Origin: a phage
Strand: one strand, 5' to 3'
DNA length: 64,000 nt
Sequence record: PV946933.1
The position numbers and the translations under genes are program-made. Positions 50,818 through 64,000 of this stretch are shown here, one piece after another (the first letter of the stretch is position 1; each line of letters starts with the position of its first letter). A model generated the notes under the pieces. The model saw nothing but the letters and a program-made list of their open reading frames with translations, was not told the origin of the DNA and ran no database searches.

Positions 50818-50845
50818 AGGGACCTTTCGGTCCCTTTGTTTTATT
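50818..50845. terminator. bidirectional terminator between rnlB and gene 24
   Basis: AGGGACC-TTTC-GGTCCCT with T-runs on both strands. Confidence 0.75.
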
Positions 50846-52124
50846 CATCAACGATAATTTTTGGTAGCTTAACACCTAATAAAACAGACAAATCTGAACG
50901 ACCCGCCATTTTATCCATGTCTCCACCATCAATTATTCTTGCTTCTTTTTCGTCTTTTGCTACAGTGTAAGGATTTGCAGATAAAGCATATCTAACCAAT
51001 AAACCGATAGATGGCTGCAAACTTTCTGGATCAACTACAACTTTAAATGCACCTACATGTTCAGGGTCATCTAAGTCAAGACCTTCTGTATACGGAGCAT
51101 AGAAAATTGATCCGACAATTTCTTTTTCGCCAATATTTTCTACCACGCCAACGATTACATAATCTAATGGGCTGTTAGTATCGCAATAAAGCGGTAAACC
51201 ATTAGCTAAGAACCCATAGGCATTTTGTGAAAGATATTTATCATCTTCTGGTTTATGTTTTAACCAACCTGATGCAGCAAGAATCGCAGCGGCACGAGCT
51301 GAAGCAACACAGAACGTTGCTGTATAAGTTGATTCTTTTTGGATATGCGAAACCATTTCACATACCATTCGGTATAATGAACGACCGGCTTCAGGTGCAG
51401 ATGCATAACTCAAATCAATGAATCCGGTATCAGTAATTCCTGTAACTTTATAGCGTTTTGACACTGTAATCAAAGACTGTAGAATATCTTTATTGATTTC
51501 ATCCGCCATTTCAGTTGCAAGCAAATCTTCCAAGAAATTAGGAGCATCGAATCCATTTGCTTCTAAATCTTGTGCTAATTCAACTGTAATGCCAGTTTTA
51601 AGTTTACGAGATTTAACTGCGGTTTGCCATTTATTAATCTGGAATCTAGCATCAGCAATTTCGCTATCAGAGCTTTCAAATTTGCTCGTTGACGCTGCGT
51701 CAGAAAATAGACGAACCTTTAAAAGAACAATTGCAATCTGAAGAGCTAGTTCTAAATCGCTTTCTTCAATGGTAGCAAAAGGTGTATCTTCTAATACTTT
51801 ATAAACGATATTATTATATTTGAATAAATCGCCTTTATTGAGAGTTAATTTAGACTCTTCTGTTAATTCTGTGATTTGTTCTCGGTCTACATACCCAGCT
51901 TCGCCAGCGTAAGTAGCACCAGTTTTAAATGTAAATTCATTATCTGGGTTAAGGTATTTGATACCATAAAAAGCAGCAACAGGTTGATTAGTTCTTTGCG
52001 TTGCTACAATGTCAGAATATATTAATTTAGTGGTAGCGCGAGTCAAAGCAACGAGATTTGGGCGACCGATTGAGTTGCTATTCGTTGTGGTTGATTCGCG
52101 CAGAAGTTCGTTGATTTTAGCCAT
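50841..52124 (-). CDS. 24: gp24 capsid vertex protein
   Basis: 427 aa MAKINELLRESTTTNSNSIGRPNLVALTR... Confidence 0.95.
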   Translation of the reverse strand: MAKINELLRESTTTNSNSIGRPNLVALTRATTKLIYSDIVATQRTNQPVAAFYGIKYLNPDNEFTFKTGATYAGEAGYVDREQITELTEESKLTLNKGDLFKYNNIVYKVLEDTPFATIEESDLELALQIAIVLLKVRLFSDAASTSKFESSDSEIADARFQINKWQTAVKSRKLKTGITVELAQDLEANGFDAPNFLEDLLATEMADEINKDILQSLITVSKRYKVTGITDTGFIDLSYASAPEAGRSLYRMVCEMVSHIQKESTYTATFCVASARAAAILAASGWLKHKPEDDKYLSQNAYGFLANGLPLYCDTNSPLDYVIVGVVENIGEKEIVGSIFYAPYTEGLDLDDPEHVGAFKVVVDPESLQPSIGLLVRYALSANPYTVAKDEKEARIIDGGDMDKMAGRSDLSVLLGVKLPKIIVDE

Positions 52125-52159: not shown

Positions 52160-52223
52160 AAGTTATTTACAAGACCAAAGTAATATGATATTATATTCAT
52201 ATACAAATGGAGTGGTGTTTAAA

Positions 52224-52886
52224 ATGAAATATTTAATATATCAAATTACTAATATCATCAATGGAAAAATTTACATCGGAGCTCATGCTACTCTTGACGA
52301 AAACGATGGTTATATGGGTTCTGGCGTAAACATCAAAAAATCCATCAAAAAATATGGTATTCATAACTTTAAAAAAGAAATTCTTTATTCTTTCTCCTCA
52401 TCTGAGGAGATGTATAAAATGGAAGCTTTACTAGTCAATGAGGAATTCGTTATGAGAACTGATACTTATAATGCTGCTATTGGTGGTAGAGGAAATCCAG
52501 TTATAGTTCATTTGCAAGATCCTTCATATCGTAATATGTTATCAATGCGAACAAAAGAAGGAATGACTGCGGAAGCTAAACGAAAAATATCAAAGGCAAA
52601 AACAGGCGTTAAGCAATCTGATGAAACTATCGCGAAGCGAGTTAAAGGGCGCAATGAATATTATAAAACACATGTTCATCCACGAAAAAATAAACCTATA
52701 TCGATTTCACATCGTAAAGCTATTTCTGAAAAACTTAGCGGTATTAAAAAATTTATTCCAATATGTATAAAGGGTGTCAAATTTGATAATCCTGATTACG
52801 CAGCGGAGCATTTTAAAGTTAGTCCTAAAACTATTCGCAATTGGATAAATGCGGATGATATGCCTGATTGCTATCGTATAAAATAG
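52224..52886 (+). CDS. segD: GIY-YIG homing endonuclease (SegD-like, between genes 23 and 24)
   Basis: KYLIYQITNIINGKIYIGAH motif; track start 52185 is an alternative ATG. Confidence 0.8.
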   Translation: MKYLIYQITNIINGKIYIGAHATLDENDGYMGSGVNIKKSIKKYGIHNFKKEILYSFSSSEEMYKMEALLVNEEFVMRTDTYNAAIGGRGNPVIVHLQDPSYRNMLSMRTKEGMTAEAKRKISKAKTGVKQSDETIAKRVKGRNEYYKTHVHPRKNKPISISHRKAISEKLSGIKKFIPICIKGVKFDNPDYAAEHFKVSPKTIRNWINADDMPDCYRIK

Positions 52887-52935: not shown

Positions 52936-54501
52936 TTAGATACCTTTAACATATACACGTCTAAAGTAAGCGTTTTTACCAAGGCTATTCAGAATAGAAG
53001 GCATACCGCTCTGGATGCGAGAAGCCGGAGCCTGAGCAGCGGATTCTGCAAATGGGTTGATACCGATACCGTAACGAGTTTTGAATCCCATTACTGGTTG
53101 GAAGTTCTTCGGATCGGAACCACGCAGCGGAGTCAGAGCTACATATGGAGCATAGTAAATACCAGCATCCATTTCGTTCGGACCTTTATAACCTACAGTG
53201 AAATAATCCTGTTTAGCATACTGGTCGATATATACACGGTATTTACCACCCAGAACGCCGGCAAATACTGACTTGGTAGTATCAGTGTTAAAGCCGGTAG
53301 CCAGACCCTGTGCAGCATAAGAAATGCCAGTATCAACTGAAGCCAGAACGTTAACTACGTTACGGGAAGCGATAATGAAGTTACCTTCACCACGACCGGT
53401 CTGACGAGCAATTTCAACTGCTTCTTTGTCAATCTGGAACAACAGAGCTTTAAAGGATTCACCCGCCCAGCGAGCACCACGAATATCAATTGGATCCTGG
53501 AAGTCAAATACACCAGCTTTAGAACCCGGAGTCAGGGTCATACCAGATTTACCAACCTGTGCGGAGTAGTTAATCCAATCAACAATTTCACGGTTGATTT
53601 CCAGCATGATTTCGGTAGCCAGAATACCAGACAGTTCAGCATCAGCATCCATACCGTGAACAGCGCGGAGGTCTTGTGCTAATTCGATAGAGTAAGCAGC
53701 TTTCAGCTGGCGAGATTTAGCTTCGATAACTTGCTTATCGATACGGAAGCCCATTTCATTCCATGGGTTATCGGTAGAACCGTTGAAACCTTCCTGGAGT
53801 TCAGCGATAGAAGTAGCCATACCTTCAGCGATTTCTACCAGTACACCAGCTTCCATTTGTTTCTTAATTTCAGCATCTAATTTAGCTGCGTCAGTTGCAC
53901 TAGTATCAATTTGCTTAGCTTCTGTAGCTTGCAGATACACAGTACCAGTGTCCTGGAAGAAGTGGGTGTAAATAGTTCCAACTTCAAGAGTATCACTTGC
54001 TTTCAAAGCAGCGAATTTCTTAGCAGCACCCTGACCAGAGAACATTGCATCTGGACCATACATTGGGTGGAATGCTTCTTTAGCACCGGCAGCGATTGGG
54101 TCTTTACCATATACTGCGCGCAGTGCGAATACCTGACCGGTCGGGCTGTTCATCGGCTGAACACCGCAAATATCGAAAGCAATCAGGTTAGGAATAGCAC
54201 GACGTACCATACCCATAACAGCTGGGCCAATCTGAGTTACTGCGCCAGAAGTCTGACCTGCAGCGATGTTAGTAGCGTTGTAACCGTGGTCACCACCGAT
54301 TTCAGCTTCTGTTAAGAAAGAACCGAACGCCTGAGCGATTTTTTCGTCTTTGTACTCTGGAGCTGTCTGGAAATCTTTTTCCTGGTTTTCAAAGATTTTA
54401 GCGATAATCGCTTGTTTGCTATTAGCAATTTCCGGTAAACCCTCACCTTCCAGTAATGGCTTCCATTTGTTCAAAAGTTCAGCTTTAGTTTTGATAGTCA
54501 T
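52936..54501 (-). CDS. 23: gp23 major capsid protein
   Basis: 521 aa MTIKTKAELLNKWKPLLEGEGLPEIANSKQ... Confidence 0.97.
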   Translation of the reverse strand: MTIKTKAELLNKWKPLLEGEGLPEIANSKQAIIAKIFENQEKDFQTAPEYKDEKIAQAFGSFLTEAEIGGDHGYNATNIAAGQTSGAVTQIGPAVMGMVRRAIPNLIAFDICGVQPMNSPTGQVFALRAVYGKDPIAAGAKEAFHPMYGPDAMFSGQGAAKKFAALKASDTLEVGTIYTHFFQDTGTVYLQATEAKQIDTSATDAAKLDAEIKKQMEAGVLVEIAEGMATSIAELQEGFNGSTDNPWNEMGFRIDKQVIEAKSRQLKAAYSIELAQDLRAVHGMDADAELSGILATEIMLEINREIVDWINYSAQVGKSGMTLTPGSKAGVFDFQDPIDIRGARWAGESFKALLFQIDKEAVEIARQTGRGEGNFIIASRNVVNVLASVDTGISYAAQGLATGFNTDTTKSVFAGVLGGKYRVYIDQYAKQDYFTVGYKGPNEMDAGIYYAPYVALTPLRGSDPKNFQPVMGFKTRYGIGINPFAESAAQAPASRIQSGMPSILNSLGKNAYFRRVYVKGI

Positions 54502-58325: not shown

Positions 58326-58817
58326 TTATTCCCAATAATCGAGAGCGAGAGTTACTTCAAAGGTTTGGATTTCATTGTTTGAATCCCAATCTAATTGAAG
58401 TTCACCCACGTTGGTAGGCCACAAGCCTTTAATTTCGACTTCTTTTGTTACAGTTTTAGCGTCACGAGCATATTGGCGAACAACAGCGCTCTTTTTATAC
58501 TCTGCTGGTTTTCCACCAGTAATTTCGTTCCCTTGCCCAGCAGCAATGCTTTGCCAGTCAACAAACTTCTGGCGAGCATCATGTGCCTCATCGTTCATTA
58601 CTGTAACAGTCCAGTCATCGAATGTACGATCGCCTGCTACGTTAATTTTACGGTTCATAAATCCGACTGGAATTTTTTCTACAATACCAGCTGGTAAAGC
58701 AGTGGCTTTACATTGAAACGTAAAATTTTGTCCAAGATAAGAAATTTCTACTTGGAATAAGTTAGGTCGAGCAAAATCACCAGATTCAAACGCTCGTGTT
58801 ACATCATCTACAAACAT
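58326..58817 (-). CDS. 19: gp19 tail tube protein
   Basis: 163 aa MFVDDVTRAFESGDFARPNLFQVEISYLG... Confidence 0.96.
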   Translation of the reverse strand: MFVDDVTRAFESGDFARPNLFQVEISYLGQNFTFQCKATALPAGIVEKIPVGFMNRKINVAGDRTFDDWTVTVMNDEAHDARQKFVDWQSIAAGQGNEITGGKPAEYKKSAVVRQYARDAKTVTKEVEIKGLWPTNVGELQLDWDSNNEIQTFEVTLALDYWE

Positions 58818-58831
58818 ATTAGCCTCTGTAG

Positions 58832-58839
58832 TATTTATA
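58832..58839 (-). promoter_or_regulatory. late promoter TATAAATA for gene 19 (proximal copy)
   Basis: plus-strand TATTTATA 15 bp upstream of ATG. Confidence 0.6.
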
Positions 58840-58890
58840 TCCCTATGTTTAACCTAGGGCATATAGAATTAAAGAATTAAGGATATAGTG

Positions 58891-58898
58891 TATTTATA
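58891..58898 (-). promoter_or_regulatory. second late promoter TATAAATA (distal copy), next to hairpin GGCCTG..CAGGCC 58900-58917
   Basis: plus-strand GTATTTATAT repeated 60 bp from proximal copy. Confidence 0.5.
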
Positions 58899-58924
58899 TG
58901 GCCTGCCGAAACAGGCCTTTAGAA

Positions 58925-59530
58925 TCATTCTAGTAAATCCCAAAGATCTACGCTATTTCTTTTTGACTTTTCTCGGTTAGATTCCCAAGTGATTATTTCT
59001 AAATTTTTTACGCTTGCTATAATTTCCGGCGGAATTAAATTATCAAATCCATATTTGATAGATACTTTATGATCGAGTTGGTAAGCACCTTCTACACCGC
59101 ACACTCCTATTTTATCAGCATTCGGCCATTTTGACCAAATTTTTCTTATTTTAGCTGACTTAGTTATAGAATGAACTCTACTAGCATATAATGCAAACTC
59201 TTTTCTTTTACCAGTCCATCGAGGATGTTTATCGCCTCTTTGCCATGGTCTGCTTATTCCGGATTGAACTTCCGAATTTTTAATAGCAACTTGTTTAATG
59301 CTGCATTTTCTACACGCATGTGTGGGTGTTCTATTTAAAAGCTGAATGCTTCTACTAAATTTAATACCGCATAAATCACATTTAGCGTCAACTATTTTAT
59401 TACTATTCTTTGGCATTAATTCTATTGGAACAGATACTGTATCATGATATGATACTTCATATCCTAGAATTGCCGACCACATTTTTGAATGATTTCTTGG
59501 TTTTATTGTAACAAACTTAGAAATAATCAC
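58925..59530 (-). CDS. free-standing HNH homing endonuclease with zinc-finger-like CxxC pairs
   Basis: CDLCG...CRKC and HNH-like LDHKVSIKYGFDN...N; likely GTG start 59530 after SD GAGGA (track TTG 59569 overlaps gp18 terminator). Confidence 0.65.
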   Translation of the reverse strand: MIISKFVTIKPRNHSKMWSAILGYEVSYHDTVSVPIELMPKNSNKIVDAKCDLCGIKFSRSIQLLNRTPTHACRKCSIKQVAIKNSEVQSGISRPWQRGDKHPRWTGKRKEFALYASRVHSITKSAKIRKIWSKWPNADKIGVCGVEGAYQLDHKVSIKYGFDNLIPPEIIASVKNLEIITWESNREKSKRNSVDLWDLLE

Positions 59531-59547
59531 TTGTTTCCTCGAGAATA

Positions 59548-59561
59548 GGGGCCGAAGCCCC
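59548..59561 (-). terminator. hairpin GGGGC-TTCG-GCCCC after gene 18
   Basis: 5-bp GC stem with UUCG loop then U-rich tract. Confidence 0.6.
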
Positions 59562-59569
59562 ACAATCAA

Positions 59570-61549
59570 TTAACCTGCAAGACCAGTTAACTCATCGAAA
59601 TCTGCACCAGTAGCAGTTGCGACGAAATTAAGTTGGATATAATTTATACTACGAGCCGGTTGGATGTAGAATGTTGCAACAAACTCATTTCTATCAATTA
59701 CTGACGGAGTGTTATTTGTTGTATCGCAAACTACACGATATTCATAAATTCCACCGAGAGCTTTAATTCCCTGTAAGTATTGGGCAGTTTCTGTGCGGAA
59801 TGATGAACGAGTAAACGCGTTGTTTAATTCGAACAAACGATATTTTGAACTACGTCCGATATTCGTTTTCAACATATTAAACAGACGACGAACGTTAATA
59901 CGATCAAATGGAGAAGGAACAGAAGTAGCTGTTTTATCACCATACAATACGTAACCATCACCACCTGTACCAGTTACTGGGTTGATAGCTTCTTGGTATA
60001 AACGGTCGCGCTGAGCTTGGCGAGTTTCAATAGCAAGTTTAATAACGTTAAGAATCTGACCACGATTATAACCAGCTGGAGACATCCAAGTCTGAGAAAC
60101 GTTATCAGTTCTTGCGCATAAACCGGCAATATCAGCTGCTAATGGAACCCAGCGATTGACATCATTATATTTGTCATATTGATATTTGTAGTTACCATCA
60201 ATTGCTGCGTAGGTTGAACTGATATTAAAGTTATTATCAGTGTATGAACCTGCTGCAGTTCTCCAATTGACTAAGTTATCAACAGCACGAGTTACAGGAA
60301 TTCCAACTACAGTTTCACGCGGTGGTGAGCACAATACTAAGCAATCTTGGCGAGCATCCCCAATTGAAACGACGTGTTTTTGGACAGTAGATGCTGTTTC
60401 TAAAGATTCACCGGCACAAGAACCCGCAATAAACAGCTGAACGTCAACGGATTCACGGTCAGCAAAGAAGTCCCAAGCTTCCATTAAATCTCCTGCTGTT
60501 ACTTCAGCATTTGATGATAATCCACCAGACAGAGTTAAAATTCCAGAGAAGCCTTCTGGCCAGTTTTGTGCAGTTGCAAAAATATATTCTGAACCACCTT
60601 TTGCGAAAAAGTCATCAATATAGATGTTACTATCGTAAATATCTTTTTCGCCACGCTTTGTTGAAAGAACGACGCTTTGAACAATAGCATCATTGCGACG
60701 AACTATAATAGCGTATTGCGAATCAGTTTGTGGTCCATATCCAAACACTGCTTTGGCAGTAGATGCGCGTGTTCCGCCACCTGGATAAATTGGGAGTAAT
60801 GCAGAAGCTCCTTTTGCGTAGTCAGCTTTAGATACGATTTCGATTTCGATTTTATCGCCCAACTCGCCTGGATAAAGAGCTACTACTCCTGGAATTCCAT
60901 ATTTTTCGAGATTTGTTTGAAATTCAACTGCTGTCATAGCAGCTTCAGCATTTTCAATCTCAGCTAATAAAATACCGGAATCAGTAATAATTTTTCCAAG
61001 AGTTATTACTGCAGCTAAACCAGAGGAAGACGAAGAAATTTCCGCGGTCCAGTTAGAACCTAATGCTGGATATTCACCGACTTCTTTCGCTTTAGCGATA
61101 ATTTTTGCGGTAGGAATATTAATTTTCTTAATTTTTCCATCAGCATCTACTTCGGTAATTTTACACTCTGTTTCAACATCTTCTGAAACATACTTAACCG
61201 TGATTTTATCTCCAACCGCGTAGTTACTACCTGGGGTAGAAATAGTGTATTCAATATTACCAGCAATCGGAGATGAGTTTTTAGCGGTATCTCTATCGAC
61301 AGCACGCACAACTCGCAAATCATTTCCGTATTGTAAGAAATTCATTGCAGACATAAAATAGTCAGCAGTTTCAGCTGTAGGTTGACCAAAAGTATTAACT
61401 AAATCTACTTCATTTGTAACCTGTTTAATTTGAAAAGCAGGACCCCACTGGAATTTACCGGCCAAAGCTGCTGTACCAGTAGAGTTATTAACCACGGTGC
61501 TTTGAACCGTAGTTTCTTTGAGCTCAATGCCCGGAGATAATAAAGTCAT
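59570..61549 (-). CDS. 18: gp18 contractile tail sheath protein
   Basis: 659 aa MTLLSPGIELKETTVQSTVVNNSTGTAAL... Confidence 0.97.
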   Translation of the reverse strand: MTLLSPGIELKETTVQSTVVNNSTGTAALAGKFQWGPAFQIKQVTNEVDLVNTFGQPTAETADYFMSAMNFLQYGNDLRVVRAVDRDTAKNSSPIAGNIEYTISTPGSNYAVGDKITVKYVSEDVETECKITEVDADGKIKKINIPTAKIIAKAKEVGEYPALGSNWTAEISSSSSGLAAVITLGKIITDSGILLAEIENAEAAMTAVEFQTNLEKYGIPGVVALYPGELGDKIEIEIVSKADYAKGASALLPIYPGGGTRASTAKAVFGYGPQTDSQYAIIVRRNDAIVQSVVLSTKRGEKDIYDSNIYIDDFFAKGGSEYIFATAQNWPEGFSGILTLSGGLSSNAEVTAGDLMEAWDFFADRESVDVQLFIAGSCAGESLETASTVQKHVVSIGDARQDCLVLCSPPRETVVGIPVTRAVDNLVNWRTAAGSYTDNNFNISSTYAAIDGNYKYQYDKYNDVNRWVPLAADIAGLCARTDNVSQTWMSPAGYNRGQILNVIKLAIETRQAQRDRLYQEAINPVTGTGGDGYVLYGDKTATSVPSPFDRINVRRLFNMLKTNIGRSSKYRLFELNNAFTRSSFRTETAQYLQGIKALGGIYEYRVVCDTTNNTPSVIDRNEFVATFYIQPARSINYIQLNFVATATGADFDELTGLAG

Positions 61550-61575: not shown

Positions 61576-61580
61576 TATAT

Positions 61581-64000
<2,420 letters not shown>

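Follow-up and report, generated by a model that had tools for sequence, protein, structure and literature searches.

ORF19.1 between the tail sheath and tail tube genes of T-even phages: a probable free-standing homing endonuclease gene with a predicted long-range helix at its start site

In T4-like phages, therapy phages included, homing endonuclease genes influence recombination, marker exclusion and the mosaic structure of genomes. In T4 they are often promoter-less cassettes whose ribosome-binding site (RBS) is sequestered by RNA structure, and seven T4 free-standing endonuclease genes likewise lack a promoter of their own and are read from upstream transcripts (PMC2988022). One group, the Mob proteins, consists of an HNH domain fused to a distinct C-terminal region (PMC2988022). 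Here, the ORF19.1-type gene found between gene 18 (tail sheath) and gene 19 (tail tube) was analyzed in a 64,000-nucleotide stretch of phage DNA (sequence record PV946933.1), the whole of which is referred to as the window. As a T-even homing endonuclease gene, ORF19.1 is probably ordinary in kind. The new features are a link between the type of a short patch in gene 18 and the allele carried, a pair of alleles with swapped modules, and the predicted sequestration of the start site by the distal coding sequence of the gene itself. About a quarter of the sequenced Tequatroviruses carry a gene of this family, almost always labelled 'hypothetical'.

The locus resembles MobA–MobE, of which MobE is the best studied (PMC2988022), in being an intergenic promoter-less cassette adjoining a conserved essential gene, in combining an HNH-type nuclease with a separate DNA-binding region, in its sporadic occurrence among close relatives, and in an expected target located in the neighbouring gene and not at the insertion point. 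Unlike in the Mob proteins, the ORF19.1 nuclease is C-terminal and matches neither a Pfam HNH profile (HNH_3 included) nor NUMOD; because of this reversed domain order and the missing profile match, ORF19.1 is not a member of the Mob family. In addition, the Mob genes lie among nucleotide-metabolism genes, whereas ORF19.1 lies in a late structural operon. From the small stand-alone nicking endonucleases Gme HNH (4h9d) and GVE2 HNH (5h0o) the ORF19.1 domain differs in lacking the paired cysteines of many HNH cores, in having two short helices between the strands, and in being fused to a zinc-finger DNA-binding region.

Pairing of the Shine-Dalgarno (SD) sequence and start region, predicted here, is known to restrain endonuclease translation in I-TevI, I-TevII, I-TevIII, segB and Aeh1 mobE (PMC2988022). 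In those genes local hairpins are formed with upstream sequence that is missing from late-promoter transcripts, which results in a temporal switch. In contrast, the ORF19.1 partner lies about 500 nt downstream, in the nuclease-coding part of the gene; since it lies inside the open reading frame (ORF), this partner is present in every transcript, whatever the promoter. The ORF19.1 family also differs in having two clades with different registers of pairing.

In the maturation-protein gene of phage MS2 a distant segment of the upstream leader pairs with the start region and closes it, and initiation is considered to occur only within a kinetic window on the nascent RNA, with a very low protein yield. 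The ORF19.1 start region would similarly be closed by a distant segment, with a kinetic model that we only infer for ORF19.1; genome type, gene and geometry are different, the MS2 partner being located upstream.

As described for SegF, SegG and MobE, with their marker exclusion and target polymorphism (PMC2988022), carriers of ORF19.1 differ by clustered changes in the adjacent gene, and short flanks appear to travel with the endonuclease gene; unlike in those systems, the cleavage site is a candidate proposed from sequence. The presence of different endonuclease genes at one site in related phages recalls SegH and Hef, which replace mobC and mobE (PMC2988022), but the ORF19.1 alleles share a near-identical nuclease domain, start region and RNA helix, and only their DNA-binding halves differ.

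The cassette between genes 18 and 19

Collinearity between T4 and the window ends one base after the gene 18 stop codon and resumes at ATTCTAAAGGCC, whose first base is the last base of the TGA of the ORF. Between these points a cassette (Table 1) replaces the 7-bp ACGGTGC of T4, and the RB3 insertion has the same boundaries. A reading made earlier from the letters of the window and its ORFs (the sequence-only reading) had noted that T4 has no gene between 18 and 19, in agreement with the T4 gap of 116 bp, which is free of genes. In the phage collection three states of the 18/19 junction, 382 empty ones of T4 type, 70 with the T6-type allele and 48 with the RB3-type allele, make up essentially all of the about 500 Tequatrovirus records with these flanks, 118 of them being occupied. 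As in free-standing endonuclease genes, the gene is optional, its boundaries are exact, the junctions are identical, and no remnants are found in the empty ones.

Outside Tequatrovirus, tblastn located the family in 240 phage records. All full-length homologues with readable surroundings directly follow the sheath gene (about 45 loci from GenBank phages, IMG/VR and metagenome assemblies), and the tube gene lies downstream in all but Sinorhizobium phage phiM12, where a different gene is found. The loci read were those of VR7, RB3, Klebsiella phages Roth77 and PKO111, Salmonella phage S16, Acinetobacter phage Tonic and Erwinia phage Gravdalen, together with 12 metagenome contigs and about 30 IMG/VR contigs. 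The synteny holds even where gp18 is 35–47% identical to that of the window. The ORF19.1-type gene is thus optional yet faithful to its locus. A gene both universal and syntenic in T4-like phages had been named as the outcome that would speak against an insertion; it is strictly syntenic where present, but present in only 118 of the about 500 Tequatrovirus records.

The sequence-only reading had also pointed to a hairpin followed by two motif copies about 60 bp apart upstream of gene 19, and these were found (GTATTTATAT at 58831–58840 and 58890–58899, 59 bp apart). Their interpretation as a duplicated late promoter, a mark of the insertion, had to be given up. The post-ORF hairpin and both copies of the late promoter motif TATAAATA are base-for-base the same in T4 and in all 13 Tequatrovirus loci compared, so that the 'duplicated late promoter' belongs to the native sequence upstream of gene 19, and a duplication by the insertion is ruled out. 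The hairpin preceding the ORF, in turn, had been taken for the gene 18 terminator; it is carried by the cassette, and the native gene 18 hairpin now stands after the ORF. GC hairpins of differing sequence precede the homologues in six further loci (L088, L094, L100, L090, L097 and L098). On computational evidence, the proposal of a homing endonuclease inserted in a late operon keeps its core, an optional, precisely bounded HNH-like cassette absent from T4, and loses the hairpin and promoter readings.

No TATAAATA was found in the window between the copy upstream of gene 18 (61578–61585) and the ORF, which rules out a late promoter of the ORF's own there; the cassette is therefore promoter-less and read from the gene 18 late transcripts. 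In the VR7-like loci L005, L099, L008 and L089, a consensus TATAAATA lies about 20 nt upstream of the ORF, and in Erwinia phage Gravdalen (L103) about 9 nt before it. With either TATAAATA or a GC hairpin before the ORF, there are two upstream architectures with the same downstream RNA helix. Judged from these motifs, transcription of the ORF would be late in every case.

The mechanical ORF call starts at a TTG (59569) abutting the gene 18 stop codon. Almost certainly, translation begins instead at the GTG at 59530, because GAGGA stands 5 nt before it, T6 ORF19.1 is annotated from the same start, the match to PHROG 5104 begins at exactly the GTG residue, and the N-terminus MIISKF is conserved in homologues. 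The TTG was dropped on the PHROG match, the T6 annotation and the homologue N-termini, and an ATG at 59482 was ruled out since residues 1–16 are conserved in homologues. PHROG 5104, a phage family of unknown function, is matched over the full length of the protein (E = 8.7e-82; residues 14–213 of the mechanical ORF against profile positions 1–209 of 228), and the protein is 98% identical to T6 ORF19.1 (CAA84443). The ORF is intact, the T6-type copies differ by 11 synonymous and 3 non-synonymous substitutions, and no frameshifted copies were seen among the loci read; the gene appears to be under purifying selection.

The encoded protein and its relatives

The ORF of about 200 amino acids (aa) on the strand of genes 18 and 19, for which CxxC...CxxC and an HNH-like core had been noted in the sequence-only reading, was recovered with the same motifs and strand, and the span given for it (58891–59561) contains the whole ORF, extending from the TATAAATA copy at 58891 to the upstream hairpin. 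The protein is composed of an N-terminal beta-rich region with a Cys4 treble-clef-like zinc finger, presumed to be the DNA-binding module, a helical linker, and a C-terminal HNH-like nuclease domain (residues ~105–201). An AlphaFold2 (AF2) model was obtained with a predicted local distance difference test (pLDDT) value of 89.6 for the full length, and of 89.7 for the domain only (predicted template modelling score, pTM, 0.80). A Foldseek search with the whole-protein model gave no significant match; with the domain-only model, HNH proteins ranked first, but with E > 0.1. The top-ranked structures, of the Geobacter Gme HNH (4h9d) and phage GVE2 HNH (5h0o) type, share 8–17% sequence identity with the domain. 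The model thus gives moderate support to a beta-beta-alpha metal-finger fold.

The domain contains the HNH-like motif YQLDHK...NL...N, with D153, H154, N176 and N185 as candidate catalytic residues. None of the four varies among 34 homologues or among 19 distant relatives, and they are the sole invariant columns in an alignment of 144 diverse representatives; read from these alignments, they correspond to the HNH catalytic-residue signature. The paired zinc-binding cysteines typical of many HNH cores are missing from the core of the domain. A Pfam scan of the window protein showed only a weak sub-threshold DUF4379 (treble-clef zinc finger) match and Prim-Pol noise, and a profile of the 34 homologues run against PDB sequences found no HNH protein, only weak matches of zinc-finger type (mS66, C2H2 fingers). 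A profile search for HNH and NUMOD had been suggested as a check; the domain escapes the profile libraries, while its predicted structure and invariant motif are HNH-like. On its modelled fold and conserved residues the C-terminal domain is a divergent HNH-like (His-Me finger) nuclease that sequence profiles fail to recognize.

A phmmer search with the domain against 1.84 billion representatives gave at least 1046 clusters, in which it is nearly always C-terminal. The N-terminal partners in these relatives include HTH_7/23/38, NUMOD3, zinc ribbons, DUF4379 and DUF7487; as in free-standing endonuclease families, the DNA-binding modules are exchangeable. The commonest partner, DUF7487 (PF24308, of unknown function), occurs in 22 of the 144 representatives (best E 3e-50), which suggests that it is a DNA-binding repeat module of homing endonucleases. 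A relative of 372 aa (L072:2086-3204; IMG/VR contig 3300040781_000109) lies inside a fractured gene for the ribonucleotide reductase large subunit, whose barrel domain is split at ~396/460 and which is followed by the small-subunit gene; this relative adjoins an intein C-terminal end and a GIY-YIG ORF. Among other relatives, one adjoins a GIY-YIG ORF and one follows a DnaB-like helicase gene. In its variety of modules and its typical sites, as far as the contigs indicate, the wider family behaves like homing endonucleases.

Alleles, gene 18 patch and start-site helix

The RB3-type and T6-type alleles are about 97% identical at the DNA level in the upstream hairpin, the SD and the first six codons, and about 95% identical over the last ~220 nt. 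Their zinc-finger halves (N-terminal 120 residues) share 27% protein identity. The genomes hosting the two alleles are 95–99% identical, the insertion site is the same, and the N-terminal halves of the T6 and RB3 types each group with a different subfamily of other genera. The mosaic suggests that DNA-binding modules were exchanged on a nuclease and regulatory frame common to both alleles.

Between T4 and the window, the last 316 nt of gene 18 contain 19 differences, 13 of them within 27 nt (59627–59653) and nearly all synonymous. The patch around them occurs in three main versions, A, B and C (Table 1). The carriers listed among the 118 were all at least 91.6% identical to the window over patch and junction. 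The band of 80–90% identity contains 248 records, about the count of patch A, and those listed in it are all without the gene. From this count and the identity of the listed carriers it follows that at most a couple of carriers could have patch A, which appears to be confined to genomes without the gene and is present in about half of the Tequatrovirus records. In several genera, 13 of the 14 carriers of a GTG-start homologue read ATA AAT TAT where T4 has ATT AAC TAC, and the L088 homologue, 68% identical, is linked to the same 29-nt patch B. In addition, all carriers of an allele share a flank haplotype that extends for about 90 bp into gene 18, with backgrounds that differ further upstream. 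The patch peptide is among the most conserved in gp18, and is therefore the kind of sequence typically targeted by homing endonucleases. From these sequence patterns, the patch is proposed as the likely target and immunity site of the endonuclease.

A separate observation concerns promoter-like sequence in the patch. The carrier-type patch reads GTATAAATTATAT, containing TATAAATT, one base off the late-promoter consensus, and the T4-type patch lacks it; the first T of TATAAATT is found in the AGT-ATA versions of the patch only. Within gene 18, TATAAATT could act as a late promoter for the cassette and gene 19.

The start region of the ORF and a segment encoding the second beta strand of the HNH motif form an inverted repeat (I1) of 26 nt, 92% complementary, in which 25 of 26 pairs are formed if G-U is allowed. 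The helix is present in the minimum free energy (MFE) and centroid folds of the whole ORF mRNA (fold z = -7.5 versus shuffles), and the folds extend it by UUCUCG/CGAGAA and GGA/UCU, with the SD also largely paired. In the window, 15 of 18 nt at positions -12 to +5 are predicted to be paired (mean unpaired probability 0.18), and the predicted mean for the start region in 19 other loci is 0.02–0.37. The local GC hairpin upstream of the ORF excludes the SD and hence is no local RBS hairpin; the RBS is sequestered in the predicted stable fold, with both SD and start codon paired.

The helix probability was 1.00 in all 14 GTG-start lineages, whose proteins are 43–68% identical to that of the window. 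In a gap-free alignment of the arms 83% of the cells were paired, as compared with at most 50% with slid partners. Double changes were found at 7 pairs, and 0 of 500 shuffles reached the observed values, a statistic inflated by the kinship of the sequences aligned. Compensatory changes included ATT/GAA to ATC/GAG in three lineages (U-A to C-G, synonymous on both arms), A-U to U-A at position -1 in L092, and, between L099 and VR7, UUC to AGA opposite GAA to UCU, which changes one amino acid in each arm and leaves the pairing perfect; in L088 the distal segment of the helix is rewritten.

The ATG-start relatives encode the same peptides in non-complementary codons (L090: ATG ATT ATT AGT AAA / AAT CTA GAA ATT ATT) and have another helix, of 21–23 bp, between the SD/AUG region and the DN(H/N)I(V/T/C)P(E/S) codons about 500 nt downstream. 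In this class the compensatory changes reach into the non-coding spacer (AGGAACAAU/AUUGUUCCU, AGGAGUAAU/AUUACUCCU and AGGGCAUAUG/CAUAUGCCCU). The start codon tracks its partner, GUG with CAC and AUG with CAU. The distant IMG/VR homologues showed no helix above shuffled controls, and the helix is therefore limited to the enterobacterial-phage clades. Covariation among the compared sequences thus supports the existence of the helix, and the ORF19.1 mRNA appears to fold its 3′ end onto the start site, shutting off its own translation.

Proposed cycle, rival explanations and further observations

A promoter-less cassette with a free-standing homing endonuclease gene of the ORF19.1 family, subject to a homing cycle and to translational control, is considered the probable explanation of these data. 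In the cycle, of which we infer the cleavage activity, the target identity, homing and the regulatory effect of the helix, the gene would be transcribed late within the gene 18 message, which is abundant. During mixed infection, gene-less genomes of the patch A type would be nicked or cut by the enzyme in the highly conserved gene 18 3′ end, 50–85 bp upstream of the insertion point, and recombinational repair would copy the cassette and about 90 bp of gene 18 into the cut genome; carrier genomes would be immune via the synonymous patch. The helix, in which RBS, GTG and the first seven codons are paired, would hold translation very low despite very high transcription, with initiation mainly in the short time until the 3′ arm has been synthesized, or as long as a ribosome holds the two arms apart. 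RNase III processing may be an alternative or additional function of the helix.

A wider claim is put forward tentatively, as possible but more doubtful than the reading above: that the ORF19.1 family represents widespread unrecognized HNH-like homing endonucleases that combine a co-transcriptional timer with two module-swapped alleles in a target/immunity arms race. The 3′ coding segment of the gene itself would close the start site and allow a brief burst of enzyme per transcript; this timer would have been re-invented in a second register and would co-evolve with the choice of GTG or ATG as start, and the two Tequatrovirus alleles would be rivals for a single locus, each linked to an immune version of the gene 18 target. 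If true, current profile libraries have missed a family of HNH-like nucleases with more than 1000 clusters, a stretch of 36 nt in gene 18 is a concrete candidate target, the natural allele pair with exchanged DNA-binding halves would be useful for specificity studies, and a long-range mRNA pairing supported by covariation enables a toxic selfish gene to be carried within a very strong transcription unit.

Several points weigh against a homing endonuclease with its target in the patch. The window protein gave no HNH or NUMOD match in Pfam (HNH: none at E <= 1) and no match in NCBIfam and PADLOC scans, and weak HNH_4 matches were found in only 1 of 34 (E = 0.078), 1 of 19 (E = 0.0018) and 4 of 144 relatives (best E = 3.5e-4). 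No linkage is seen on the gene 19 side. Gene-less genomes with patches B and C exist (RB14 and FelixPlatter; ~20 and ~60 records, by subtraction), so that the patch is not diagnostic of carriage; instead of conferring immunity, it could have hitch-hiked with donor DNA. Alleles and patches were counted per record, ignoring kinship among genomes, and strict synteny in very distant phages would also be expected from vertical inheritance with repeated loss.

This last point is the basis of an alternative in which ORF19.1 is an ancient resident accessory gene, vertically inherited at 18/19, repeatedly lost (T4 included) and not mobile, whose nuclease or DNA-binding product would serve, for example, in the degradation of host or competitor DNA or in late-gene regulation. 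Every full-length homologue does lie at the same locus, down to 35–47% gp18 identity, the ORFs are intact and under purifying selection, and the control of expression is elaborate and conserved. However, the 'losses' would have to be base-exact in near-identical genomes, with 382 T4-type junctions free of remnants, and two alleles with N-terminal 120 residues of 27% identity would have to share one site in genomes that are 95–99% identical. Each allele, moreover, drags its own ~90-bp flank haplotype through backgrounds that are shuffled further out, and relatives of the nuclease domain occupy classic homing-endonuclease sites; a resident gene, with either role, is unlikely. Decidedly unlikely is a decaying or domesticated former homing endonuclease that no longer cuts, its polymorphism being due to ordinary Tequatrovirus recombination. 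There are precedents in the defunct I-TevIII of T4 and in several seg and mob genes without determined activity (PMC2988022), the core lacks the zinc-binding cysteines typical of many HNH domains, and the many gene-less genomes with carrier-type patches would leave few susceptible targets. Yet the T4-type patch is still found in 246 records, about half of those of Tequatrovirus, D153, H154, N176 and N185 are invariant in the 144 representatives, the substitutions are mostly synonymous, and the loci read contain no frameshifted copy.

For the helix, a main role in RNA processing or insulation is possible, though rather unlikely. The duplex of at least 26 bp could be a substrate of RNase III; the cut would remove or inactivate the endonuclease message and leave genes 18 and 19 again with separate mRNAs protected by hairpins, limiting the cost of the insertion. 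The length and near-perfect pairing of the helix fit this role, as do the bracketing of almost the whole ORF by both helix classes and the position of the cassette within one of the most heavily expressed late units, where the gene 18 message receives a 3′-end hairpin from the cassette. On the other hand, the 5′ arm is centred on SD and start codon in both classes, and the GTG/ATG identity tracks the partner codons, pointing to initiation control; the two functions are not mutually exclusive. That the inverted repeat is a coding by-product with no RNA function, the codons for MIISKF and NLEIITW happening to be complementary, is highly improbable, even though both arms encode the most conserved peptides of the protein and the relatedness of the compared sequences inflates the shuffle statistics. 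In relatives such as L090 these peptides are encoded by codons that are not complementary, three lineages show synonymous double changes from U-A to C-G, a triple compensatory change alters both peptides, and the second clade has its helix in another register, with compensatory changes of its own into the non-coding spacer.

Table 1. Features of the 18–19 region in the window, and versions of the gene 18 patch.
Feature	Coordinates	Strand	Remarks
gp18, tail sheath	59570-61549	-	Stop codon 59570-59572
gp19, tail tube	58326-58817	-	
Mechanical ORF call	58925-59569	-	TTG start abutting gene 18 stop codon
ORF19.1-type gene	58925..59530	-	201 aa, GTG start, TGA stop
Shine-Dalgarno GAGGA of the ORF	59536..59540	-	From sequence; predicted to be mostly paired in the long-range fold
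Inserted cassette relative to T4	58926..59568	-	~643 bp; alignment and BLAST vs T4 NC_000866 100200-101400
Cassette hairpin GGGGCUUCGGCCCC (GGGGCTTCGGCCCC hairpin)	59548..59561	-	UUCG loop; directly after gene 18 stop codon, before ORF start
Native post-gene-18 hairpin GGCCTGTTTCGGCAGGCC	58900..58917	-	Identical in T4, invariant in 13 Tequatrovirus loci; here 3′ of the ORF
Late promoter motif TATAAATA, distal to gene 19	58891..58898	-	Coding strand; native, also in T4
Late promoter motif TATAAATA, proximal to gene 19	58832..58839	-	Coding strand; native, also in T4
Cys4 zinc-finger segment	59303..59380	-	CDLC...CRKC: C51, C54, C73, C76
HNH-like beta-beta-alpha core	58967..59083	-	Residues 150-188, YQLDH...NL....W..N..K
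Helix 5′ arm	59508..59533	-	3 nt spacer, GTG start, codons 2-8
Helix 3′ arm	58986..59011	-	~500 nt downstream; encodes VKNLEIITW, second beta strand of HNH motif
Synonymous-substitution patch, gene 18 3′ end	59621..59656	-	Codons ARSINYI(T/Q)LNFV, 36 nt; proposed recognition/immunity site
Patch A			GCT AGA AGC ATT AAC TAC ATT ACC TTA AAC TTC GTA; 246 records; T4 and other gene-less genomes
Patch B			GCT CGT AGT ATA AAT TAT ATC CAA CTT AAT TTC GTC; 90 records; 4/4 T6-type carriers read
Patch C			GCG CGC AGT ATA AAT TAT ATT ACT TTG AAT TTC GTC; 108 records; 3/3 RB3-type carriers read

The gene is deposited in GenBank as T6 ORF19.1, and its copies are mostly labelled 'hypothetical'. Occasional labels are 'HNH endonuclease', 'homing endonuclease', 'type II restriction endonuclease' (Roth77), 'holin' (SYGD1) and 'head morphogenesis protein' (T6 RefSeq, as 'putative head morphogenesis protein'). 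In Aplg8 and RB6 the ORF is present but unannotated, and in Salmonella phage S16 (L100, NC_020416 89900-90220) gp100.1 is annotated with 107 aa, though a GTG-start ORF of 206 aa is intact. A literature search on ORF19.1, gp19.1 or a homing endonuclease located between the sheath and tube genes found no study of ORF19.1, and two 2010 reviews do not name it. One 'other HNH' listed for T6 in the review of Petrov et al. (2010) may be ORF19.1.

Tequatrovirus 18–19 DNA with 96–98% identity was also found in records MG010123 (Staphylococcus phage SAJK-IND, 32 kb), OR584013 and PV654520 (Pseudomonas phages), which are probably mislabelled or contaminated assemblies. In L088 (Logan SRR18080419 contig) an ORF at 1615-2172 with a faint NUMOD3 match lies directly after gene 19, in the expected place of the portal gene; this phage probably has a second endonuclease gene here, between genes 19 and 20. 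As for the other putative endonuclease gene of the window, regular-expression scans of the window for GIY-YIG gave no match; the ORF listing of the window, in contrast, yielded a segD-like ORF of 233 aa (52185-52886, plus strand), identified by position and motif, as the sequence-only reading had proposed. It has a GIY-YIG-like N-terminus, YLIYQITNIINGKIYIGAH, and is flanked, at the T4 segD position, by gp23 (52936-54501) and gp24 (50841-52124), both on the opposite, minus strand.

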